Assembly (NCBI GenBank): GCA_016707895.1
Contig: JADJGV010000034.1
Location: 629,625 to 693,624 of the forward strand
Length of the DNA stretch: 64,000 bases
Reading direction: 5' to 3'
DNA from: Myxococcales bacterium
GTDB lineage: Bacteria > Myxococcota_A > Polyangia > Haliangiales > Haliangiaceae
Part shown: positions 5,248 through 64,000 of the stretch, piece by piece
Position numbering within the stretch: position 1 is the stretch's first letter
Layout: each line of letters begins with the position of its first letter
Translations under genes and position numbers: made by a program
Notes under the pieces: model-generated
The model's database searches: none
What the model saw: the letters and a program-made list of their open reading frames with translations, nothing else
Told to the model about the DNA's origin: nothing

Positions 5248-6432
5248 ATGTGCGACACGCTGGTGACGATCGCGCCCGGGCGCGTGCGGTTCGCCAAGAA
5301 CTCCGACCGCGATCCCAACGAGGCGCAGGCGCCGACGTGGCGGCCGGCGCGCGACCACGTCGCCGGCGCGCCGCTGCGCTGCACCCACGTCACGATCCCG
5401 CAGGTCGCGCACACCCACGCGGTCTTGCTGTCGCGGCCGTTCTGGCTGTGGGGCGCCGAGATGGGCGCCAACGCGCACGGCGTGGTGATCGGCAACGAGG
5501 CGGTGTTCACCGATCAGCCGTTCACCGCCGCCGGCCTCACCGGCATGGACCTGGTGCGGCTCGGGCTCGAGCGCGGCGCCACCGCGGCCGAGGCCGTGGC
5601 GGTGATCGAGGACCTGGTCGCGCGCCACGGCCAGGGCGGCGGCTGCGGCCACGAGCACCCCGGGTTCCGCTACCACGCGAGCTTCCTGGTCGCCGACGCC
5701 CGCGGCGCGTTCGTCGTCGAGACCGCCGGTCGCGCGGTCGCGGTGCAGGCGGTGGTGGACGCCGCGACGATCTCCAACGCGCTGACCCTGCCGGCGCTGC
5801 GCGGCCACCGCGATCGGCTGCGCTCGTGGGTGGCGGCCGCCGATCATCGGCAGGCGTGCACGCTGGCCGCGGCCCGGGCCGCCCGCGGCGTCGGCGATCT
5901 GTTCGCGGCGCTGCGCGACCACGGCGACGGCGACGACGGCGCGCGCCCGCGCTACCGCTGGCACCACGGCGCGATGGCGGCGCCGTGCATGCACGCCGGC
6001 GGGCTGATCGCCGCGTCGCAGACCACCGCGTCGTGGGTCGCCGAGTTGACGCCGGCCGGCGCGCGTCACTGGATCACCGCGACCGCGGCGCCGTGCTTGT
6101 CGATCTTCAAGCCGGTCGCCGTCGACGATCCGCTCGCGCTGGGCCCGCCGCCGCGCGATCGCGCCGACGCCGGCCTGTGGTGGCAGCACGAGCGCCTGCA
6201 CCGCCGGGTGATCGGCGACGCCGCGTGGTGCCGGACGATCGCCGCCGAGCGCGACGAGGTCGAGCGCCGGTGGCTGAGCGCGCCGCCGGCGCCGACCGCG
6301 GCCTTCGCCGAGCACCGCGCGCTGGTGGAGCGCTGGCTGGCGGCCAGCGCGGCCGCGCCGGTCGCCGACGATCGGCCGTGGTACGTGCGCCGCTACTGGG
6401 CGGAGCGCGACCGCCGCGCCGGCCTGGCGTGA
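5248..6432 (+). CDS. Ntn-hydrolase, peptidase C69 / acyl-CoA:6-APA acyltransferase-like (N-terminal nucleophile Cys2)
   Basis: Starts MCDTLV (Met-Cys nucleophile typical of C69/secernin-type Ntn hydrolases); protein-like composition over 394 aa. Confidence 0.7.
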   Translation: MCDTLVTIAPGRVRFAKNSDRDPNEAQAPTWRPARDHVAGAPLRCTHVTIPQVAHTHAVLLSRPFWLWGAEMGANAHGVVIGNEAVFTDQPFTAAGLTGMDLVRLGLERGATAAEAVAVIEDLVARHGQGGGCGHEHPGFRYHASFLVADARGAFVVETAGRAVAVQAVVDAATISNALTLPALRGHRDRLRSWVAAADHRQACTLAAARAARGVGDLFAALRDHGDGDDGARPRYRWHHGAMAAPCMHAGGLIAASQTTASWVAELTPAGARHWITATAAPCLSIFKPVAVDDPLALGPPPRDRADAGLWWQHERLHRRVIGDAAWCRTIAAERDEVERRWLSAPPAPTAAFAEHRALVERWLAASAAAPVADDRPWYVRRYWAERDRRAGLA

Positions 6433-6435
6433 GCC

Positions 6436-6545
6436 GGTTCCGTTTGGAGGGTTTGTCGCCAAACCCTCCCCCGCGGGGTCACGCCCCCGCGGGGCCCCCG
6501 CCCAAGACGCGAGACTCCCGGGCGACGTTCCGGAGGTGCGGCGTC
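6436..6545. repeat. REP-like intergenic repeat copy A (hairpin GGAGGGTTTG-tcgc-CAAACCCTCC, palindromic CCCCGCGGGG x2, core CCCAAGACGCGAGA)
   Basis: Shares hairpin and core motifs with copies at 47300-47400 and 62146-62400; lies in convergent 3' intergenic region. Confidence 0.7.
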
Positions 6546-6567
6546 ACGGCGCGATGAGCCGCCCCGA

Positions 6568-6993
6568 TCACGGCGCGATCGGCCACGGCGTCGGCCGCAG
6601 CCCGGCCTGCCAGTTGTCGTGGCGGCCGTCCCAGTAGCCGACCTCGACCGCGGCGAGCTCGACGTCGTCGAGGCAGTTGAGGTTGATCGAGACGAAGTCG
6701 CCGCCGAGCTGGGCCAGGTGGCCGCGGCCGTAGACGCCGACGTGGCACCGCGGGCAGAAGTAGCGCCCGGCGATCTCCGGGTGGCGCGCGTAGGTGTGGA
6801 GCGTGCCTTCGTCGGTCAAGAGCGTGAAGGCGTCGGGGCGGACGATCGCGCCGGTCCACCCCAGCTTCGTGCAGATGGTGCAGTTGCAGCGGGTGCCGCG
6901 CGTCGCGTCGACGCGGACGGTGAAGCGCAGGTGCCCGCAGTGGCAGCTGCCGCGGTGGACGGAGAGGACCGGGTCGGGGCTGGAGGTCGTCAT
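6568..6993 (-). CDS. GFA-family protein (glutathione-dependent formaldehyde-activating / CENP-V-like zinc-binding domain)
   Basis: CHCG...C.C..C and CPRCH zinc-ligand pattern; start taken at MTTSSPD (M18 of ORF). Confidence 0.75.
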   Translation of the reverse strand: MTTSSPDPVLSVHRGSCHCGHLRFTVRVDATRGTRCNCTICTKLGWTGAIVRPDAFTLLTDEGTLHTYARHPEIAGRYFCPRCHVGVYGRGHLAQLGGDFVSINLNCLDDVELAAVEVGYWDGRHDNWQAGLRPTPWPIAP

Positions 6994-18667: not shown

Positions 18668-19903
18668 AGGGAGTCATCGTCCACGGCGCCCTGCTGGGCG
18701 TGATGCTGGTCTACGGCTACCGGACCTGGACCAAGGAAGAGGCCACCAAGCCGGTCGGCGGCGAGGTGGTGATGTGGACCCGCGGCGAGGCCGATCTCTC
18801 CAAGATCGAGTTCCAGACCGAGAACCGGCTGGTGCGCATCGAGCGTCGGGGCACCGGCGCCGCCGCGTACTGGTGGGGCAGCGAGTCCAAGACGATCAAG
18901 AAGCCCAAGCCGATCGATCCGCCGCCGCCGGCTGATCCCGCCGCGCCGCCGCCGCCGCCGCCGGCGCCGGAGTTCGTCGACGAGACCACGACCACCGAGT
19001 TCCCGATCGGCCCCGAGGGCGAGAAGCTGGTGAAGCAGTTCGCCCGGATGCGCGCGATCAAGTCGGTGGGCGTCCCGAAGGACGACAGCAAGAAGGACTA
19101 CGGCCTCGCCGACGCGCAGACGTCGATCGCGGTGGTGTTCGCCGACGGCGCCAAGACGCTGGTGGTCGGCGGCCGGGTGTTCGGCGGCGGCGATCGCTAC
19201 CTGCAGGACCTCGACACCAACAAGGCCTTCGTCGTGCTCGGCAGCCTGGTCGCCACCCTCGAGGGCGGCGAGCCCAGCCTGCGCCCGACCGACCTGCGCT
19301 CGTTCGACCCGAAGGCCGCGACCGCGGTCGAGGTGGCGGCCAAGGACAAGAGCAAGCGGGTGCAGAAGATCAAGGTCAAGGCGCCGGCGCCCGACGCCGA
19401 CGATCCGCACGCGCCGCCGCCCAACGCCGACGAGCTGATCGAGACCTGGGGCCAGGGCGCGACCGCCGACACCGTCGTCGCCAACTTCCTCGACAAGCTC
19501 GAGAAGCTGCGCCCGACCAGCTACGACGCGAAGCTCGACGTCGCGTCGCTCGAGCTGGTGGTGGCCGCGACGTACAAGGACGGCAAGGGCGCGCAGCTCG
19601 GCACGATCAAGCTGTACCGCCGCACCACGCCGGCCCCGGCCGACGCGACGCCGCCGACCCCGCCGGCCGACCCGACCAAGCCGGCGACGCCGGCCGCGCC
19701 GGCCGACCCGACCAAGCCGGCGACGCCGGCCGCCGCCGGCCGACCCGACCAAGCCGGCGACGCCGGATCAGCCGCCGGCCGCCAAGCCGGCCGACAAGGT
19801 CGAGTACTTCCTGTGGACCGAGCGCACCCGCGTGCCCGGCCTGCTGACCACGATGGCCGCCGAGCGCGTCGAGCAAGACGTGCCCACGCTGTTCGGTCAG
19901 TAG
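18664..19903 (+). pseudogene. DUF4340-domain protein (GldG-associated), reading frame interrupted by +1 shift inside a PADPTKPATPAA tandem repeat; plausible C-terminus (...VEYFLWTERTRVPGLLTTMAAERVEQDVPTLFGQ*) is in the +1 frame
   Basis: ATG overlaps gldG-like stop (ATGA). Two perfect 36-nt repeat units then a single extra G before the third unit; downstream frame-A text is R-rich nonsense while frame B reads protein-like to TAG at ~19903. Confidence 0.5.
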
Positions 19904-46894: not shown

Positions 46895-47299
46895 ATGGAC
46901 CTGCGCGCCATCCTCGAACGCAGCCGCACCGTCGCCGTCGTCGGCATCCACCACGACGCGGCGCGGCCGGCGCACTACGTGCCGGCCTACCTGCACGACC
47001 ACGGCTACCGCATCCGCGGCGTCAACCCGGCGCTGGTCGGGCGCGTGCTGTTCGGGCACCCGGTGGTCGCCACCCTGGCCGACGTCGACGAGCCGATCGA
47101 CCTGGTCGACGTGTTCCGCCGCGGCGACGCGCTGCCCGACCACCTCGCCGAGCTGCTGGCCTGCCCGGCGCCGGTGGTGTGGTTCCAGCTCGGCATCACC
47201 AACGATGCGGTGGCGGCGGCGCTGACCGCCGCCGGCAAGCAGGTGGTGCAAGATCGCTGCACGCTCGCCGAGCACCGCCGGTTGGGGCTGGGCGCATGA
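46895..47299 (+). CDS. CoA-binding domain protein (YccU/YneT family)
   Basis: RTVAVVGIHHDAARPAHYV...GYRIRGVNP pattern of CoA_binding_2 proteins. Confidence 0.8.
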   Translation: MDLRAILERSRTVAVVGIHHDAARPAHYVPAYLHDHGYRIRGVNPALVGRVLFGHPVVATLADVDEPIDLVDVFRRGDALPDHLAELLACPAPVVWFQLGITNDAVAAALTAAGKQVVQDRCTLAEHRRLGLGA

Positions 47300-47400
47300 G
47301 CTCTCTGGAAGGGGCTTTCGCAAAGCCCCTTCCCCGTCGGGTCATGCCCCGACGGGGCCCCAACCCGAAACGCGAGATCGTGTTCGGGGATCCGCGTGCT
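47300..47400. repeat. REP-like intergenic repeat copy B (hairpins GGAAGGGGCTTT-cgc-AAAGCCCCTTCC and CCCCGTCGGG-tcatg-CCCCGACGGGG, core ACCCGAAACGCGAGA)
   Basis: Two adjacent perfect stem-loops immediately after the CoA-binding gene stop; shares motifs with copies A and C/D. Confidence 0.7.
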
Positions 47401-47476
47401 GATCAACCCGGTGATCGCCGCGCGCCTGCGCGGGCCGATCCGCGTTGCTCCCAGGCCCGGCATCGGGCATGGTGCC

Positions 47477-47854
47477 AGGATGCTCCTGTGGATCGTGCTC
47501 GGCATCGCCGGCGCCATCACCACCTACGTGGTGGTGGGCGTGTGGTCCGATCGCCGGGTCGCGCTGCCGCCGGCCGGGACGCCCGAGGTGCCGCCGCCCG
47601 GGCCGCTGCCGGTCGCGCCGCCGGCGCCGCCGGCCGCGCCGATCCTGCGCGGCGACACCGCGGCCACCGCCGTGCCGGTGCCCGCCGCCTGGCGCGAGAA
47701 GCTGGCGGCCGGCAAGTGCGGCTGCGGCCAGGCGCTAGCGATCGCCAGCGACGAGGCGCTGCGCTACGACGGCCGGCTGATGGTGGTGGTGCGGCTGGCG
47801 TGCGCGGCCTGCGGCCACGCGCGGTCGGTCTACCTGGCGCCCGCCGAGGCGTGA
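47477..47854 (+). CDS. Hypothetical small membrane protein with C-terminal CxC...CxxC cluster
   Basis: Start at MLLWIVLGIAGAITTYVV (TM helix); weak, could be non-coding. Confidence 0.35.
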   Translation, partial: RMLLWIVLGIAGAITTYVVVGVWSDRRVALPPAGTPEVPPPGPLPVAPPAPPAAPILRGDTAATAVPVPAAWREKLAAGKCGCGQALAIASDEALRYDGRLMVVVRLACAACGHARSVYLAPAEA

Positions 47855-48517
<663 letters not shown>

Positions 48518-48614
48518 GAGCGATCGAGTACGCGATCGCTCTGACACCGCCACCGCCACCGCCACCGCCCAGCTCTCGTCCCGGGGCTGGGCTCGTCGGG
48601 GACCGCCCCAGGTC

Positions 48615-50852
48615 TCAGAACTTGTAGGTCGCGCCGACGCGGGCGTAGGTGTTGTAGTCGGTCGTCAGCATCGGCTGGTTGAAGTCGTCGACGAACAGCG
48701 CGCGCTCGCTCTGGAACGGGGCGCCCTCGAGCATGACCCACAGGTTCCAGCGCTGGCGCAGCGCGATCTCGGCGATCACCGCGGTCATCAGCCGGACGCC
48801 GCCGTCGCGGCTGAAGAAGTCGTTGCCGCTCTCGCCGGTGAGGTCCTCGACCCGCTTGGCCTCCTCGGCCGTGTAGCCGTCGGCCATCGGCGCCGGGCCG
48901 CCGGCGCGGTGCAGGTACTTGGTGCACGCGGCGATCGGATCGCCGTCGAACGGCATCGCGTCGGTCGGCGCGACGCCGCTCTTGAGCTCGGGGCAGTGGC
49001 GGTCGCTCCAGAACTCGAGGTAGGCGCGGGCGCTGACCGTGACGTGGGTGAACGCGGTCAGCGACGCGACGCCGCCGGCGCTGAACGTCGCGCCGTTGCG
49101 CTTGGAGTCGTCGAACAGCTTCGAGCCCCACCACAGGTTGCCGAACACGCCGGCCGAGAACGGGTCGTTGTCGACCAGCTGGAACCGCGCGCCCAGGCCG
49201 ATCTCCGAGCGCTCGATCATCGAGCGCACGCCGACGTTGGCGTCGAAGCCGATGCCGGACTTCTTGCCGGCGCCGACCGCGACCCGGACGTCGAAGAAGT
49301 ACGGGTAGCCCAGGCTGATGTCGACCGTCGACCGGCCGCGCGGCATCGTCCGCGCGCCCCACGACGCCAGGCCCCGCTGCTGGGCCTTGAGCTGGTCGTC
49401 GGACAGGCCCTCGACCTTGAGCGTCGCCGAGACGATGTCGCTCTTGCCGCCCTCGAGCATGTGGGTCTCCTCCCACGGCTGGTAGCCGGCCTTCTGGACG
49501 CGGATGATCGTCGTGCCGACCTCGATCTCGGTCAGCTCGAGCGGGGTCACGCCCTGGGGCAGGCCGTTGATCATGACCTCGGCGCCGGGCGGATCCGACA
49601 GCACCCGCAGCCGGGCCACGGCCTTGAGGTCGGCCGACACCGTCAGGGTCTGGCCCTCCTCGAGGCGGACCTTGGTCTCGAAGGTCTTGTAGCCGGCCAG
49701 CTTGACCACGACGAAGTGATCGCCGCGGGCGACCTGCTTCTCCTGCGGCACCTTGCCGATGCCGGCGCCGTCGAGGAAGACGTCGGCGTCGGGCACCGCC
49801 GACAGCACCTTGAGCGTGCCCTTGCCGCCGGCCCCGGCCTCGGCGTTGAGGTCGAGCTTGAGCACGGTCGACTGGCCGTCGTTGATCGTGATGCGCTCCT
49901 CGTGCGGCTGGTAGCCGGGGGCCTTCACCTCGAGCACGTGGTCGCCGCCCTTCACCTGCTTGATGTCGAGCGGCACCTTGCCCATGGGGGTGCCGTCGAG
50001 GAAGACCTCGGCGCCGGTGACGTTGGACAGCACGCGGATGGTGCCGCCCTGGCCGCCCAGCGTGGCCTTGAGCTCGCCGCGCACCTTGGCCTGCTGCCCG
50101 GCCAGCACCTGGATGGTCTGCTTCCACGGGATCGCCGGGTCCTTGCGCAGCTCGACCACGTGCAGGCCCTCGATCACGTCGTTGAGCACCAGCGGGGTGG
50201 TGCCGTTCTGCTTGTTGCCGTCGAGGTACACCTCGGCGTCGGCGACGTCGGCCTCGACCACGATGATGCCGACCTTGGGCTTGGCCACCGCCTTGAGCAC
50301 CGGGGTCAGGTTGGCCTTCTCGTTGTCCTTGACCTCGACCCAGGTCTGGAAGTTGTCGAAGCCCTCGCGCTTGAGCTCGACCAGGTGGCGGCCGGCGGTG
50401 GTGGTGAGCAGCACCGGCGCCGAGCCCTGGGACTGGCCGTCGAGGTAGACCGTCGCGCCGAAGACGTTCTGATCGGCGTCGGCGCGGATGTCGATGCGCG
50501 GCGGGTCGACCTTCTTGATCAGCGGGATGAAGACGCTCTGCACCTTGCGGGTGCGGGCCACCTTCTGGTTCTTCTGGGCCAGCTGGTAGCCGTCGAGCTC
50601 GACGATGATCAGGTAGTCCCCGTTCTTCATCTTGCCCTGCCACGGGGTCACCCCGACCGCGCCGAGCTCCTTGCGGTCGATGTAGATGGTGGCGCCGGGC
50701 GGGGCCGACTCGATCTTGACGGGGTACTTGCCGCCGGACAGGGCGGGGTGGCTCTGGGCCGCGGCCGGACCGGCCAGGCACAGCGCCACGATCGCGAGCG
50801 CAAAGATCGACGCGCCGCGGAGCCAGCGCAGAGGCAACTCGGTGAGCTTCAT
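48615..50852 (-). CDS. PEGA-domain repeat protein with C-terminal outer-membrane beta-barrel-like region
   Basis: Signal peptide MKLTELPLRWLRGASIFALAIVALCLAGPAAAQ; multiple PEGA-like repeats (A.V..DG..G.TP......G.H...L...GY); C-terminal ...YKF typical OMP terminus; codon usage distinct (Lys-rich). Confidence 0.8.
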   Translation of the reverse strand: MKLTELPLRWLRGASIFALAIVALCLAGPAAAQSHPALSGGKYPVKIESAPPGATIYIDRKELGAVGVTPWQGKMKNGDYLIIVELDGYQLAQKNQKVARTRKVQSVFIPLIKKVDPPRIDIRADADQNVFGATVYLDGQSQGSAPVLLTTTAGRHLVELKREGFDNFQTWVEVKDNEKANLTPVLKAVAKPKVGIIVVEADVADAEVYLDGNKQNGTTPLVLNDVIEGLHVVELRKDPAIPWKQTIQVLAGQQAKVRGELKATLGGQGGTIRVLSNVTGAEVFLDGTPMGKVPLDIKQVKGGDHVLEVKAPGYQPHEERITINDGQSTVLKLDLNAEAGAGGKGTLKVLSAVPDADVFLDGAGIGKVPQEKQVARGDHFVVVKLAGYKTFETKVRLEEGQTLTVSADLKAVARLRVLSDPPGAEVMINGLPQGVTPLELTEIEVGTTIIRVQKAGYQPWEETHMLEGGKSDIVSATLKVEGLSDDQLKAQQRGLASWGARTMPRGRSTVDISLGYPYFFDVRVAVGAGKKSGIGFDANVGVRSMIERSEIGLGARFQLVDNDPFSAGVFGNLWWGSKLFDDSKRNGATFSAGGVASLTAFTHVTVSARAYLEFWSDRHCPELKSGVAPTDAMPFDGDPIAACTKYLHRAGGPAPMADGYTAEEAKRVEDLTGESGNDFFSRDGGVRLMTAVIAEIALRQRWNLWVMLEGAPFQSERALFVDDFNQPMLTTDYNTYARVGATYKF

Positions 50853-59021: not shown

Positions 59022-60401
59022 TCAGCCCGCGAGCGTGAGGATCGCGATCGCCGCGTCGAGCCGGGTCGCGGCCTGATCGTCGGCCAGCGCGCCCCACAGG
59101 CCGGCGGTGATGGCGCCGGCGCCGACGTGGGCCTGCACCACCGCGCGCCGCACGTCGGCGTCGGGCGAGCCGGCGAGCTCGGTGAGGATCGCCGCGCCGT
59201 GCGGGTCGCCGAGCCGCGCCAGCTCGGCGGCGGCGTCGGCGCGATCGGCCGGGGCCGCGGTCGCCGCGAGCGCGGTCAGCGCGGTGAGCGCGGCGCCGTG
59301 CTGACCCAGGTACGCCAGCGCGCGGGCCGCGGCCAGCTTCACCGTCGGCGCCGGATCGGCGAGCGCCGCGGTGGCGCGGGCGATCGCCGCGTCCTGCGGC
59401 AGCGCCGCGGCCAGCAGGTTGACCACGCCGGCGCGGGTGCCGACGTCGGTGGCGCCCAGCGCGCGATCGAACACCGCCACCGCGGCGGCGCGATCGCCGC
59501 GCCGGTGCGCCGCGGTCGCCGCCACCATCGGATCGGCGTGGGCGAGCAGCGCCTCGAGCGCCGGCTTGCCGCCGGCCTTGGCCACCAGCGCCACCGCGGC
59601 CAGCCGCACGGCGAGCGACTCGTCGGCCAGGAAGCGCGTCGCGTCGGGCAGGGCCGCCCGGCCACCGCCGCCGGCGGCCAGCGCCGCGATCGCCGCGGCC
59701 CGGACCTCGGCCGCGCCGTCGCCGGTCATCGTCACCAGCTCGGCCGCGCCGTCGCCGCCGACCGTGCCCAGGTAGCGCGCGACCGCGGCTCGCACCTGCG
59801 GGTCGGGATCGCCGGCCAGCGGCCGCAGGTCGTCGATCGCCAGCCGCCGGACCTTGCGGCCGATGCCTTCGACGGCGATCGCCCGGGCCCGCGGGTCGTC
59901 GGAGCGCAGCATCTGCTGGGCGACGTCGGGGGCCTGGCCGAACGAGCGCAGCACCGCCACCGCCGCCGCCGCCGCCACCGCGTCGTCGTCGTCGCCCATC
60001 GCCTTGCCGACGTCCTCGGCCAGCTCCTCGAGCTCGAGGCGCTCGATCGCGCGGATCGCGGTCAGCCGCAGCGCCGCCGACGGCGACGTCACGCCCTGCC
60101 ACACGGTGGTCAGCGCCATCGTGCGCAGCGCCTTGCGATCGTCGGTGCCGCCGTGCTGCGCGCGCCACGCCCGGTAGTCGGCCACCGCGCGGCCGGGATC
60201 GCCCAGGCCGAGCAGCGCGCGCAGCCGGATGCGGTGCAGCTCGGCGTCGCCGGGGTGCTTGGACAGCTCGGCCGCGGTGTAGTCCGAGGCGCCGCGGTAG
60301 TCCCCGCGGGCCAGGAGCGTGTTGGCGTGCTGGACCGACGCCGACGGCCCGCAGGCGGTGGCGGCGATCACGACGAGGGACAGGAGCAGGGCAGGGCGCA
60401 T
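59022..60401 (-). CDS. HEAT/PBS-lyase-like repeat lipoprotein
   Basis: Lipobox IAATAC; repeated DP..VR.AA..AL modules. Confidence 0.7.
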   Translation of the reverse strand: MRPALLLSLVVIAATACGPSASVQHANTLLARGDYRGASDYTAAELSKHPGDAELHRIRLRALLGLGDPGRAVADYRAWRAQHGGTDDRKALRTMALTTVWQGVTSPSAALRLTAIRAIERLELEELAEDVGKAMGDDDDAVAAAAAVAVLRSFGQAPDVAQQMLRSDDPRARAIAVEGIGRKVRRLAIDDLRPLAGDPDPQVRAAVARYLGTVGGDGAAELVTMTGDGAAEVRAAAIAALAAGGGGRAALPDATRFLADESLAVRLAAVALVAKAGGKPALEALLAHADPMVAATAAHRRGDRAAAVAVFDRALGATDVGTRAGVVNLLAAALPQDAAIARATAALADPAPTVKLAAARALAYLGQHGAALTALTALAATAAPADRADAAAELARLGDPHGAAILTELAGSPDADVRRAVVQAHVGAGAITAGLWGALADDQAATRLDAAIAILTLAG

Positions 60402-60520
60402 GGCGGACTCCGACGGCAAGGATGCACCGCCCGACCCGGGCGGGCCAGGCGCGCGTGCCTGAGGTGTGTGCCTGCGTAGTGGCGGCGCCCGCCGCCGCGG
60501 TTACGTGCTACCCACAGCGC

Positions 60521-61213
60521 GTGACGCTGCGCGCGATCCTCTTCGATCTCGATGGCACCCTGGTCGACAGCGAGGCCGACTACGCCGAGGCCATCGCCCG
60601 CTGCGTCGCCCGCGAGTTCGCGATCACGCTCACCGCCGCCGATCGCGCCTACGGCACCGGCCGCTCGTGGGTCGCGATCCACGCGTACCTGCGCGAGCGC
60701 TACCCGGCGCTGGCCTGGGATCGCGACGCGTTGATCGCCGCGACCGCCGCCGAGAGCCGGGCGCTGTTCGCCGAGCGCGGCATCACCGTGCTCCCCGGGG
60801 CCCACGCCGCGGTGGCGCGGTTCGACGCCTTCGCCCGGGGCCTGGTGACCGGCAGCTCGCGGGCCGAGGCCGGGCACATGCTCGAGCTCCTGCGCCTGAG
60901 CGACGCGTTCGCGATCACGCTGTGCGCCGAGGACGTGCCGCGGTCCAAGCCGGCGCCCGACGGCTACCTGGCGGCGTGCGCCCACCTCGGCGTCGCGCCG
61001 GCCGAGGCGCTGGTCATCGAGGACTCGGCGGCCGGGTGCGCCGCCGGCCGCGCCGCCGGCTGCGCGGTGGTCGCGGTGCGGGCCGGCAACCGCGGCGGGC
61101 AAGATCAGGGCGCGGCCCACGTCGTGGTCGACACCCTCGACGCGATCACCATCGAGCTGGCCCACGAGGTGGCGCGATCGGTCGACCGTGGGTATGGTGC
61201 GCCGACGGCATGA
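60521..61213 (+). CDS. HAD-IA family hydrolase (phosphatase/beta-phosphoglucomutase-like)
   Basis: ILFDLDGTLVDS motif I, VTGSS motif II, IEDSAAG motif III; GTG start assumed at VTLRAILFD. Confidence 0.75.
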   Translation: MTLRAILFDLDGTLVDSEADYAEAIARCVAREFAITLTAADRAYGTGRSWVAIHAYLRERYPALAWDRDALIAATAAESRALFAERGITVLPGAHAAVARFDAFARGLVTGSSRAEAGHMLELLRLSDAFAITLCAEDVPRSKPAPDGYLAACAHLGVAPAEALVIEDSAAGCAAGRAAGCAVVAVRAGNRGGQDQGAAHVVVDTLDAITIELAHEVARSVDRGYGAPTA

Positions 61214-62142
61214 AGCTCCCGCCGCGCGTCACCGTGTACGAGGTCGGGCCCCGCGATGGCCTGCAGAACGAGGCGCGGCACGTGCCGACCGCCGAGAAGA
61301 TCGCGTTCATCACGGCGCTGATCGACAGCGGCCTCTCGCGCATCGAGATCACCAGCTTCGTCAGCCCCAAGTGGATCCCGCAGCTGGCCGACGCCGCCGA
61401 GGTCGCGCGCGGCGTGCCGCGCAAGGAGGGCGTCGTGCTGTCGTGCCTGGTGCCCAACCGCCGCGGGCTCGACACCGCGCTGGCCGCCGGGATGCGCGAG
61501 GTCGCGGTGTTCATGTCGGCGTCGGAGACGCACAACAAGAAGAACGTCAACAAGACGATGCGCGAGACGCTGGCGGCGTTCGCCGACGTCGTGCCGCCCG
61601 CGCTGGCCGCCGGCGTGCCGGTGCGCGCGTACCTGTCGACGTGCTTCGGCTGTCCCTACGAGGGCGACGTCGATCCCGCGGTGGTGGTCGAGCTGTGCCG
61701 CGAGCTGCGGGCGATGGGCGTCTACCAGGTCTCGGTGTCCGACACGATCGGCGTCGCCAACCCGGCGCAGGTCGAGGACGTGCTCAGCCGGGTGCTGACC
61801 GAGGTGCCGCTCGAGGCGGTGGCGGTGCACTTCCACGACACCCAGGGCACCGCGCTGGCCAACTGCGTCACCGCGCTGCAGCTCGGCGTCACCACGATCG
61901 ACTCGTCGGTCGGCGGCCTCGGCGGCTGCCCCTACGCGCCCGGCGCCTCGGGCAACCTCGCCACCGACGATCTGGTCGGCATGCTGCACTCGATGGGCAT
62001 CGCGACCGGCATCGATCTCGACAAGCTGGTCATCGCCGCGCGCCAGGCCGCCACGTTCATCGGCCACGACCTGCCGTCGAAGTTCCTCAAGGCCTACCTC
62101 GGCAAGCAGGCGCGCGCGCGCCGCCGCGCCGAGCTGGGCTGA
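61210..62142 (+). CDS. Hydroxymethylglutaryl-CoA lyase
   Basis: VGPRDGLQNE, TSFVSPKWIPQ, HFHDTQG, GLGGCPYAPGASGN motifs; ATG overlaps HAD stop (ATGA). Confidence 0.9.
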   Translation: MKLPPRVTVYEVGPRDGLQNEARHVPTAEKIAFITALIDSGLSRIEITSFVSPKWIPQLADAAEVARGVPRKEGVVLSCLVPNRRGLDTALAAGMREVAVFMSASETHNKKNVNKTMRETLAAFADVVPPALAAGVPVRAYLSTCFGCPYEGDVDPAVVVELCRELRAMGVYQVSVSDTIGVANPAQVEDVLSRVLTEVPLEAVAVHFHDTQGTALANCVTALQLGVTTIDSSVGGLGGCPYAPGASGNLATDDLVGMLHSMGIATGIDLDKLVIAARQAATFIGHDLPSKFLKAYLGKQARARRRAELG

Positions 62143-62145
62143 GAC

Positions 62146-62400
62146 ATGCGGAGGGTTTCTCGCGAAACCCTCCCCCCGGCATTCGCCGGGGCCCCCCTCC
62201 CAAGACGGCCCAGATCCTCGGCGCGTCTGTCCGAGCCTTTCGCTGGGGCCGAAACGGCCGAAGGCCGGATCCGCGTGGACCCGGCCTTCGTCTCGCAGTC
62301 TCCTGTGCCCCGTGCCGAACGCTCTCGCGTTTCGGGTGGGGGCCCCACGTCTTGTGGGGGAGGGGCTTTGCGAAAGCCCCTCCAGGAAACAGGATCTCAG
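62146..62400. repeat. REP-like intergenic repeats, copies C and D in inverted (tail-to-tail) orientation, with additional hairpins between them
   Basis: Forward copy: GGAGGGTTTC-tcgc-GAAACCCTCC, CCCCGGCattcGCCGGGG, CCTCCCAAGACG. Reverse copy (as revcomp): GGAGGGGCTTTcgcAAAGCCCCTCC ... CCCACAAGACG ... ACCCGAAACGCGAGAGCG. Confidence 0.7.
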
Positions 62401-63179
62401 CCGCCGATCTGCCACTCGCCGCCGACGCGGACGTAGACGTTGCCGCGCAGCTCCCAGCGCACCGGCGCCCAGCGGTGGCCGGCCTTGGCGCGCTCCCAGT
62501 GGCCGGGGACCCACTCGTACTGGCGGGCCTGCTCGCTCCACGCGTAGGCGCCCTCGATCCAGACGTAGCCGCGGCGCGCCGCGCCGGGGTTCTCGACGCG
62601 CGGCGGGGGCGGCGCCATCGTCGGACCGACGATGACGACCTGGCCGCCCGACGAGATCACCGTGCCGGCGCCGTTGGTGGCGATCACGCCGCCCTGGCCG
62701 TTGTTGACGATGACGCCGCCGTTGCCGCCGACCACGCCGCCATTGCCGCCCACCACCACGCCGCCGCCACCGGGCTGGTCGTAGCGGTGATCCTGGTTGT
62801 GCGGATCGATCACGGTGCCGCCGCCGCCGCCGGTGACGACCACGCCGCCGCCGACCACGACCCAGCTGCCGTCGACCCAGTGCCAGCTACCGTTGCGCGG
62901 CTCCCAGCGGCCGTCGTTCCAGGCGTAGCCAGAGCGCTCGCGCTCCCAGTGGCCATCGACCCACACCCACTGGCCGCCCTGCCACTGCCAGTTGCCCTTG
63001 ACCCACACGTGGCCGCTCATCGGCTGCGGGTTCTCGGCGCGCGGGGGCGGCGGTTGATCGTAGGCGACGACGGCGCCAGTGGCGATGCGGCCCCGGGCCG
63101 TGACGACGCAGGCGGGGAGCGTGGTGCCGAGCAGGGCCGCGAGGCCCAGGGTCGACAGGATCCGACGGGTACGGTTCAT
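62397..63179 (-). CDS. Lipoprotein with internal Trp-rich repeats (W..G.W.WV.G.W) and Gly-rich (GGNGGV) repeats
   Basis: AAGGAG RBS 7 nt upstream of ATG; lipobox TLPAC; repeated YVW..G.W.W / HWER modules. Confidence 0.7.
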   Translation of the reverse strand: MNRTRRILSTLGLAALLGTTLPACVVTARGRIATGAVVAYDQPPPPRAENPQPMSGHVWVKGNWQWQGGQWVWVDGHWERERSGYAWNDGRWEPRNGSWHWVDGSWVVVGGGVVVTGGGGGTVIDPHNQDHRYDQPGGGGVVVGGNGGVVGGNGGVIVNNGQGGVIATNGAGTVISSGGQVVIVGPTMAPPPPRVENPGAARRGYVWIEGAYAWSEQARQYEWVPGHWERAKAGHRWAPVRWELRGNVYVRVGGEWQIGG

Positions 63180-63313
63180 CTCGAGTCTCCTTTAGGTCGT
63201 CCAGCCGGAGCGTCCGGGCCGGGAACAACTCTTGGACGGCCAGGTCCATGATTGTTTCAACCGCGAGTATTCCCACCCGCGATCGTCCTGTCAACGCACC
63301 GGGTTCCGCGAAC

Positions 63314-63925
63314 TTACGGGCCCTTGCTGGCCTTCAAGGCCTCGAGATCAGCCGGGGTCGCGGTGCGCAGCCACACCAGGTAGTCGGCCATCGCACGGAT
63401 CTGGTTGGGCTCGAGGTCGTCGTCGTAGGCCGGCATGTCGTCGAGCTTGCCGAACAGGTTGGGCGCCCCGCTGTCGCGCAGCACCGCCTCGTAGTAGCGG
63501 CGCGATCCGTAGCCGGCGAGGTTGGGCCCGGTCGAGGCGTCGGTGCCGGCGCGGTTGTGGCAGTCGGCGCACGGGCCGTCGTCGAACAGCGGCTTGCCCT
63601 GCTCGACCTTGGCGGCGTCGACGTCGGTGGCGCCGGTCTCGGCGTAGAGCAGCTCGACCAGCGCGTCGAGGTCGGCGCCGGCGGCCTCGGTCTTGGGCAT
63701 CGCGTTCTCGTCGTCGACGATCTTCTTCGACGTGCCGAAGTGCTCCGGCGCCGACGGATCGAGCAGGAGCGAGCGGATGTGCGCGCGGCTGGCCAGGCCC
63801 GGCCCAATCACCGGCGCCTTGCGATCGTCGCCGTCGTGGCAGCTCGCGCACTCGCTGGCCCACAGCGTCCGCGCCACGTAGAAGCGCGGCGTCGTGAACA
63901 CCGCCAGGCCGCCTGGCGACGGCAC
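63314..63925 (-). CDS. Di-heme c-type cytochrome (possibly N-terminally incomplete near window end)
   Basis: Two CxxCH motifs (CASCH, CADCH); ORF start lies 75 nt from window end. Confidence 0.65.
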   Translation of the reverse strand: MPSPGGLAVFTTPRFYVARTLWASECASCHDGDDRKAPVIGPGLASRAHIRSLLLDPSAPEHFGTSKKIVDDENAMPKTEAAGADLDALVELLYAETGATDVDAAKVEQGKPLFDDGPCADCHNRAGTDASTGPNLAGYGSRRYYEAVLRDSGAPNLFGKLDDMPAYDDDLEPNQIRAMADYLVWLRTATPADLEALKASKGP

Positions 63926-64000
63926 GCCGTTGGTCTTGGCCAGCGCCCGCGCTCGCGCCGCCTCGCGCGCGAACCGGTGGCTGCGCCGCTGCAGCTCCTG

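Follow-up and report, generated by a model that had tools for sequence, protein, structure and literature searches.

A three-hairpin repeat behind stop codons, probably a lineage-restricted mobile element of uncultured Kofleriaceae

What kind of repeat stands behind several unrelated genes in a 64,000-nt stretch of high-GC myxobacterial DNA (the window, meaning the whole stretch analysed)? The original prediction had described three loci, at 6436-6545, 47300-47400 and 62146-62400, built from three shared modules, and had viewed them as a dispersed REP/BIME-like family acting as terminators or mRNA stabilisers, or else as a miniature inverted-repeat element. The loci with the described modules were present at these coordinates. 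A covariance model (R1) was built from the window copies aligned with related copies, and the whole 64-kb window was searched with filters off. This yielded four full-length copies, with all else at noise level: copy A at 6440-6514 (+ strand, E = 2e-13), copy B at 47302-47377 (+, E = 5e-17), copy C at 62144-62214 (+, E = 6e-10) and copy D at 62323-62389 (- strand, E = 1.4e-19). Thus the modules are real, but the third locus consists of two copies in inverted orientation, which makes four copies rather than three. Likewise, the positions of the loci were right, yet the unit is longer than had been proposed; comparisons of filled and empty sites together with a perfect tandem duplication gave a length of about 104 to 111 nt. 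The similarity of the loci survived a proper alignment. A conserved 24-mer, GGGGCCCCNNCCCRARACGCGAGA, occurred three times in the window against an expectation of 0.00 from 100 dinucleotide shuffles. A generic repeat finder run on the whole window missed the family and returned low-identity GC-rich coding noise. A repeat unrelated to the hairpins, a 36-nt unit present 3.2 times with 96% match in a GC-rich region (19652-19766), is probably a coding proline/alanine-rich repeat.

All four copies start 3 to 14 nt past the TGA stop of a gene on the same strand, and the four genes, for a C69/secernin-like protein, a CoA-binding-domain protein, an HMG-CoA lyase and a WXXGXW-repeat protein, are mutually unrelated. 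Copy A begins 4 to 14 nt after the stop codon (6430-6432, +) of the C69/secernin-like gene (5248-6432). Its full unit (6437-6543, +) has no counterpart at the orthologous site of a second genome, 'Myxococcales bacterium new MAG-81' (GCA_016794525.1; MAG-81 below). It comprises the leader GTTCCGTTT, hairpin 1 (6446-6469), hairpin 2 (6470-6493), the conserved 24-mer (6491-6514) and a hairpin 3 region at about 6499-6543, all on the + strand. Copy B (47300-47409, +) follows the stop codon (47297-47299, +) of the CoA-binding-domain gene (46895-47299) with the leader GCTCTCT, hairpin 1 (47307-47333), hairpin 2 (47332-47357), the 24-mer (47354-47377), hairpin 3 (47364-47389) and a tail ending in GATCAACCC that is common to copies at unrelated loci. 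Behind the HMG-CoA lyase gene the string TGAGAC (62140-62145, +), which is the stop codon plus 3 nt, was found in the filled allele of the window and in the empty allele of L081 alike. It is followed by copy C, a 104-nt segment (62146-62249, +) that is present in the window and in MAG-81 and missing from L081; its parts are hairpin 1 (62150-62173), hairpin 2 (62174-62191), a degenerate core (62188-62214) and a third hairpin at about 62207-62249. Copy D (62306-62396) lies on the - strand with the leader GATCCTGTTTCCT (62384-62396), hairpin 1 (62359-62383), hairpin 2 (62343-62358), the 24-mer (62323-62346) and, at about 62306-62342, a hairpin 3 whose loop is GAGA. The stop codon of the WXXGXW-repeat gene (62397-62399, -; TCA on the + strand) stands 13 nt before its hairpin 1. 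The inverted pair C/D is one copy behind each of two convergent genes, HMG-CoA lyase (+) and WXXGXW-repeat (-).

The family is not restricted to the window. In a scan of the 24-mer against a collection with one genome per bacterial species, at least 66 loci carried it exactly. At least 60 of these loci, with at least 62 exact matches, were from MAG-81 alone, and among the matches listed three loci came from a Kofleriaceae MAG and three from high-GC contigs binned under other names. Model R1 recovered 91 copies in 560 kb, made up of the fetched 24-mer loci and the window, in agreement with the dispersed family that had been predicted. By extrapolation, a density of one copy per 16 to 26 kb would mean that a genome carries a few hundred. 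Copies mostly stand alone or form direct tandem arrays (L004, L015, L023, L036, L042, L047 and L085). Near-identical cores of 60 to 70 nt stand behind unrelated genes. The window itself was 99.9% identical to a contig of GCA_964269055.1, and the sources assign its proteins to Kofleriaceae/Myxococcales.

On the other hand, five relatives at 80-90% protein identity were covered by about 85 kb surrounding their HMG-CoA lyase orthologue, and no copy was found there. In one relative with 90% protein identity the spacer between the HMG-CoA lyase and WXXGXW genes holds a different tandem repeat (L073 6882-7131; a 74-nt unit present 3.4 times with 92% match), which is unrelated to the three-hairpin element. 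The element was also seen on contigs of 70-74% GC labelled Ferruginibacter (L050, JBAOHS010000005.1), Phycisphaerales (L023, CALMQD010000185.1) and Ideonella (L025, JAMHWF010000012.1), and L023 is 89% identical to a MAG-81 locus across 2.7 kb. Judged by their sequence these contigs are probably mis-binned or chimeric Kofleriaceae DNA. A viral origin was rejected, as a collection of viral contigs gave no match. Catalogues of such repeat families deal mainly with Proteobacteria, and in the library searched we found no description of this element or of a myxobacterial counterpart.

Each unit consists of a leader of 5 to 13 nt and three successive GC-rich hairpins. Hairpin 1 has the consensus G(G)AGGGnCTTT-CGC-AAAGnCCCTC(C). 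Hairpin 2 follows the scheme CCCC-X-loop-X'-GGGG, where the base is constant and the inner part is exchangeable, with the variants AC/GT, GG/CC, GTCGGG/CCCGAC and GCGGGG/CCCCGC. The 5' arm of hairpin 3, CCCRARACGCGAGA, is conserved, its 3' arm differs among copies and its loop is GAGA or AGAU. What had been listed as a third, free-standing core module turned out on folding to be this 5' arm with the GAGA/AGAU loop. The boundaries of the unit are blurred, with leaders and 3' parts varying from copy to copy. In 63 trimmed copies the leaders before hairpin 1 were variable (..CCTTG, ..CNAGA and others), and hairpin 2 was flanked by CCTCC and CCCCCAC.

Each window copy folded with its flanks into three hairpins in series, with z-scores of -2.0 to -5.3. 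In a model-based alignment of the 91 copies (81 distinct) standard pairs occupied 96.7% of the cells. Changes on both sides were seen in 11 of the 16 pairs, and the cells with such a change numbered 118 compared with 31 ± 4 in shuffles; these counts come from an alignment fitted to the model and from copies that form sub-families, so the cells are not independent events. Pairing fell to 35-67% when the partner columns were slid by 1 to 3 positions. The pairing of hairpins 1 and 2 is thus maintained through compensatory change, which bears out the predicted hairpin character. The mismatches, 15 G.T versus 7 A.C, favour neither strand decisively, nor RNA versus single-stranded DNA.

In the MAG-81 counterpart of copy D (L084 4128-4200) hairpin 1 and the core are intact, but about 73 nt of unrelated sequence take the place of hairpin 2 between them. 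Long inserts at the same position were also noted in the model matches L045 1481-1593 and L014 269-373. The place of hairpin 2 appears to be a hotspot at which cassettes are exchanged.

Comparison with known RNAs gave no match to Rfam at gathering thresholds in the whole window. A permissive Rfam search of 62100-62420 had ar35 as its best result with 23.9 bits versus a threshold of 45, and neither tRNA nor tmRNA was found in the window. A tRNA T-arm-like string in some tails, GGTTCGAGTCC, was dropped, as it lacks a matching stem. A Shine-Dalgarno role for the GGAGGG of hairpin 1 was rejected since no start codon comes after it. A recoding signal such as the bacterial SECIS, a hairpin just 3' of an in-frame UGA within an ORF that runs on, was likewise rejected. 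The TGA is a genuine gene end, with C-termini that agree with those of orthologues lacking the element, and what follows it, after dozens of unrelated genes, is the repeat and DNA that does not code.

Placement behind stop codons at the 3' ends of genes, part of the original prediction, applied to all four window copies and extended to the family. At least 68 of the 91 copies have a long, high-GC3 ORF of the same strand before them, with its stop codon 0 to 15 nt (mode 5 to 9) ahead of hairpin 1; the remaining 23 are mostly internal members of arrays or failures of the crude ORF filter. Between tandem genes at least 30 of 34 arrays were co-oriented with the upstream gene and abutted its stop rather than the next start, and at least two of the four exceptions were gene-call errors. 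Between convergent genes part of the stop-adjacent pattern is automatic because the intergenic spacers in these genomes are very short; there, either orientation faces one of two stops, and co-orientation comes by itself. The stop codon was TGA in 92% of the element-adjacent genes compared with a background of 74% (Fisher p = 0.03), and the following base was G in 64% versus 36%. At comparable filled and empty sites the insertion point lay 0 to 4 nt past the stop. In two genomes the spacer between groES (Cpn10) and groEL (Cpn60) contains arrays. One paralogous gene seen repeatedly near copies was examined as a candidate transposase and proved to be a sigma-54 activator.

The mobility of the units was approached by comparing orthologous sites in close genomes; in the flanking genes MAG-81 and the window share 93-97% nucleotide identity. 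At site A the window has the unit and MAG-81 does not; the latter has only TGAGCCGCGATCA (7 nt) between the two convergent stops. The window allele has 128 extra nt, namely the unit and a duplication of TCACGGCGCGA and TGAGCCG. By direct reading, these two strings, which carry the stop codons of both convergent genes, are present twice beside copy A (6544-6567, +) and once in the empty MAG-81 site, so that TGAGCCG pre-exists in the empty allele. Across 6544-6579 of the window TCACGGCGCGAT occurs twice at a distance of 24 nt, as does TGAGCCG, while each is single in the empty MAG-81 allele. The resulting pattern, T1-element-T3-T1-T2-T3 in the window versus T1-T2-T3 in MAG-81, fits no standard insertion model.

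At site B the unit is present in the window, and its core is missing from MAG-81 and from a third genome. Here the TGA on the element side shortens the CoA-binding ORF relative to its orthologues: the protein has 134 aa ending in ...LGLGA where the element is present and 135 to 140 aa in relatives that lack the element core. It is the shortest form that goes with an element directly behind the stop codon. The C-termini of the protein in relatives (P0269-P0283) are strain-specific and read ...GAPRR, ...GAPLPR, ...GAPLPSTR and ...GHR.

Site C is filled in the window and in MAG-81, while L081 (96% identical) is cleanly empty. There TGAGAC is joined directly to CGAAACGG, which is the window sequence minus exactly 104 nt with a junction ambiguity of 1 nt, and this filled/empty pair showed neither a duplication nor inverted ends. 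Polarising site C as a deletion in L081 was given up, for L081 and MAG-81 lie at roughly the same distance from the window; for the filled/empty events in general, insertion and precise deletion both fit. Site D is filled in the window and in L081, and in MAG-81 it has 73 unrelated nt in place of hairpin 2. At a further site, behind a PEGA-domain gene, two 111-nt units form a perfect tandem in a third genome (L085), with a TAG overlapping hairpin 1, and the window has no unit there. In the window the PEGA gene is directly followed by a leader-like string, TGAGACCTGGGG (48606-48617, -), after which hairpins are missing; the string may be what is left of a lost copy, or a preferred target site that is unoccupied. 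The gene end reads ...aagttcTGAGACCTGGGG in the window. TGAGAC was found behind element-free genes at one of about 190 stops and otherwise almost only before copies of the element.

The copy number and composition of arrays differed between orthologous sites of two MAGs (L003/L015 and L013/L023). Taken together, units are gained and lost as blocks among genomes that have diverged by 3-7%, and they are locally amplified into direct tandem arrays. Short-read contigs of other samples stop within copies B (in hairpin 1) and D, which is expected of a multi-copy repeat.

Several explanations were weighed against these data. Independent GC-rich terminator hairpins could resemble each other by chance or composition, since the genome has 74% GC and G/C palindromes are common. 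However, the expectation of 0.00 for the core, model E-values down to 1e-19 and 91 alignable copies with the same module order leave practically no room for this idea. A classical MITE, i.e. a DDE-type insertion sequence with an internal deletion, terminal inverted repeats and target duplications of fixed length (e.g. a 3-bp TNA/TGA), would account for the second TGA near the right end of several copies and for TGAGCCG on both sides of copy A; in addition the tail GGATCAACCCTC, on direct reading only, weakly mirrors the 5' arm of hairpin 1. Yet the hallmarks of such an element did not emerge. Across 65 loci there was no general excess of flank duplication (self versus cross-locus, p = 0.23), with no copy above the 99th percentile, and the isolated flank repeats of 7 to 12 nt (site A, L025 and L037) were within chance. 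A long target duplication, hinted at by a MAFFT alignment of upstream gene ends with the right ends of elements, was not upheld by the same 65-locus test. Bounding of the unit by TGA...TGA as a 3-bp duplication was rejected, as TGA has no sharp positional peak at the right boundary. Terminal inverted repeats were absent at the ends of the 104-nt segment of site C (ATGCGGAGGG...CGCTGGGGC) and of the 111-nt unit of L085, and the site C pair showed a repeat of at most 1 nt. Furthermore, the strict strand bias is unusual for DDE MITEs. We consider a MITE very unlikely, and the earlier suggestion of a miniature inverted-repeat element was given up because there are neither terminal inverted repeats nor a consistent target duplication.

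Alternatively, the hairpins might be kept for a function rather than by selfish spread, as a selected cis-acting RNA element of the 3'-UTR, be it an 'I-shaped' terminator that needs no U tract, a stabiliser of the 3' end or a stop-adjacent hairpin that modulates termination or ribosome rescue. Co-orientation with the upstream gene at 0 to 15 nt from its stop, the compensatory changes in the stems and the very stable hairpins all agree with this, and published REPs are similarly placed and have had RNA roles proposed (PMC3733652). Yet near-identical cores of 60 to 70 nt behind unrelated genes, sites that differ in occupancy between genomes of 93-97% identity, perfect tandem duplications and the absence of copies in relatives at 80-90% protein identity point to recent spread rather than to ancient conserved regulation. 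With respect to termination, none of the hairpins of the four window copies is followed by a T-run, and a terminator scan of 60000-64000 called no site at C or D. Intrinsic (rho-independent) terminators and the element have in common a GC-rich stem-loop just downstream of the gene on the sense strand, but the element has no T/U tract, is near-identical behind unrelated genes and also occurs in the groES-groEL spacer. As for the terminator role that had been proposed, the element is not a canonical intrinsic terminator, and obligate termination is unlikely because there is no U tract and arrays stand between groES and groEL. On balance a selected RNA element in place of a mobile one appears unlikely. 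We favour the view that the units are a lineage-restricted, high-copy, non-autonomous mobile repeat of the REP/BIME kind in uncultured Kofleriaceae (Haliangiales, Myxococcota), and we regard this as probable. Mobility and RNA function are not mutually exclusive; units could have spread first and been co-opted later.

How close is the element to known repeats? With the REP/BIME/REPIN sequences of Proteobacteria (Di Nocera et al. 2013, PMC3733652) it shares high-copy extragenic hairpins between tandem or convergent genes, a position within about 20 bp of the upstream ORF end that sometimes touches the stop codon, mosaic clusters of modules, lineage-specific families and stems kept by compensatory change. 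Most published REP families lie less than 20 bp from the upstream ORF end, and GTAG REPs can supply the stop codon (PMC3733652). The known REP super-families are, however, defined by a GTAG/CGTC tag (PMC3733652), whereas the element has none at the hairpin foot; neither GTAG nor CGTC was found at the stem foot in 63 trimmed copies. A REP is one palindrome of 20 to 40 nt, while the element is a fixed series of three different hairpins of about 105 nt. REPINs and BIMEs are predominantly closely spaced inverted pairs, while the element is single or in direct tandem and rarely forms inverted pairs. Its orientation to the upstream gene is near-absolute, in contrast to REP/BIME. Of four features that define REP membership, high-copy stem-loop palindromes are present in the element, and two others, the tag and the inverted-pair organisation, are lacking; the fourth is a cognate RAYT (Y1 transposase) gene flanked by the repeats, for which the search of about 600 kb described below gave no match. 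Because of these two we do not place it as a REP sensu stricto; its class is that of interspersed extragenic hairpin repeats. Thus 'REP/BIME-like' is a fitting analogy; it holds for high-copy, stop-proximal extragenic stem-loops but not for the tag or for inverted pairs. The fixed three-hairpin unit and the near-absolute coupling in sense orientation to a stop codon are two mildly unusual traits.

Palindrome-associated elements derived from IS200/IS605 are moved by a Y1/HUH TnpA and insert strand-specifically 3' of a short sequence. The element resembles them in its subterminal hairpins, in the lack of terminal inverted repeats and target duplications, in its clean presence/absence alleles and in a strand bias that may reflect insertion 3' of a short sequence. 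It differs in that its two end hairpins are unlike each other and that its target amounts to a preference for TGA(G), from which no defined target of 4 to 5 nt is derivable. Mycobacterial interspersed repetitive units (MIRUs) measure 40 to 100 bp, occur in high-GC genomes as direct tandem arrays in operon spacers, have one orientation with respect to transcription and abut or overlap the upstream stop codon; they are defined by small overlapping ORFs and translational coupling. The element shares with MIRUs its unit size, high GC, tandem arrays, orientation and adjacency to stop codons, but MIRUs are not known for a comparable series of conserved hairpins, and there is no sequence similarity.

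As to mechanism, a mobile repeat of this kind would spread by insertion specific for strand and position, with no terminal inverted repeats and no target duplication of fixed length left behind. The closest model would be the single-strand 'peel-and-paste' transposition that HUH/Y1 enzymes carry out in IS200/IS605 and RAYT systems, and purifying selection might then remove insertions except those just behind ORFs. Mobilisation as single-stranded DNA by a candidate HUH/Y1 enzyme fits the combination of features best, and we propose it with considerable doubt. A tblastn search of about 600 kb, roughly 5% of one genome, with RAYT, IS608 TnpA and IS200 TnpA queries gave nothing at E < 0.8, which is a weak negative. 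Because of their position and orientation the units would be transcribed as the 3' end of the upstream mRNA, where the hairpins, being very stable, might stop 3'-5' exonucleases or alter read-through. A putative role at the RNA level as a 3' stabiliser or modulator of read-through is, judged from position and orientation, a reasonable if tentative proposal. We think it improbable that the repeat represents a mobile class which targets the position right after the stop codon, or supplies the stop (TGA-G), in sense orientation without terminal inverted repeats or target duplication. If it did, an HUH-type or other recombinase of Myxococcota would have a mode of targeting that has not been described; alternatively, the stop-proximal hairpin would act at the RNA level in translation termination or ribosome rescue and so keep the element in place.

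The orientation, the stop proximity and the clean filled/empty alleles make the element a tractable case for studying how hairpin repeats without terminal inverted repeats choose their sites, and the same features open a way to ask if these repeats influence the mRNA of the upstream gene. As its sites vary among genomes only 3-7% apart, the element is also a sensitive marker for strain typing, and its presence is associated with strain-level variation in the C-terminal length of the neighbouring protein. It breaks short-read assemblies of this abundant wastewater group of Kofleriaceae. It also misleads gene callers, as one public ORF start falls inside an element tail. In the public annotation of a near-identical contig a 152-aa ORF (window 47396-47854, +) is called from GTG 47396, inside the tail of copy B. 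The orthologues in MAG-81 and a third genome have 123 to 124 aa and start at an ATG equivalent to window position 47484, and from this comparison of sequences the 152-aa call looks over-extended because of the repeat.
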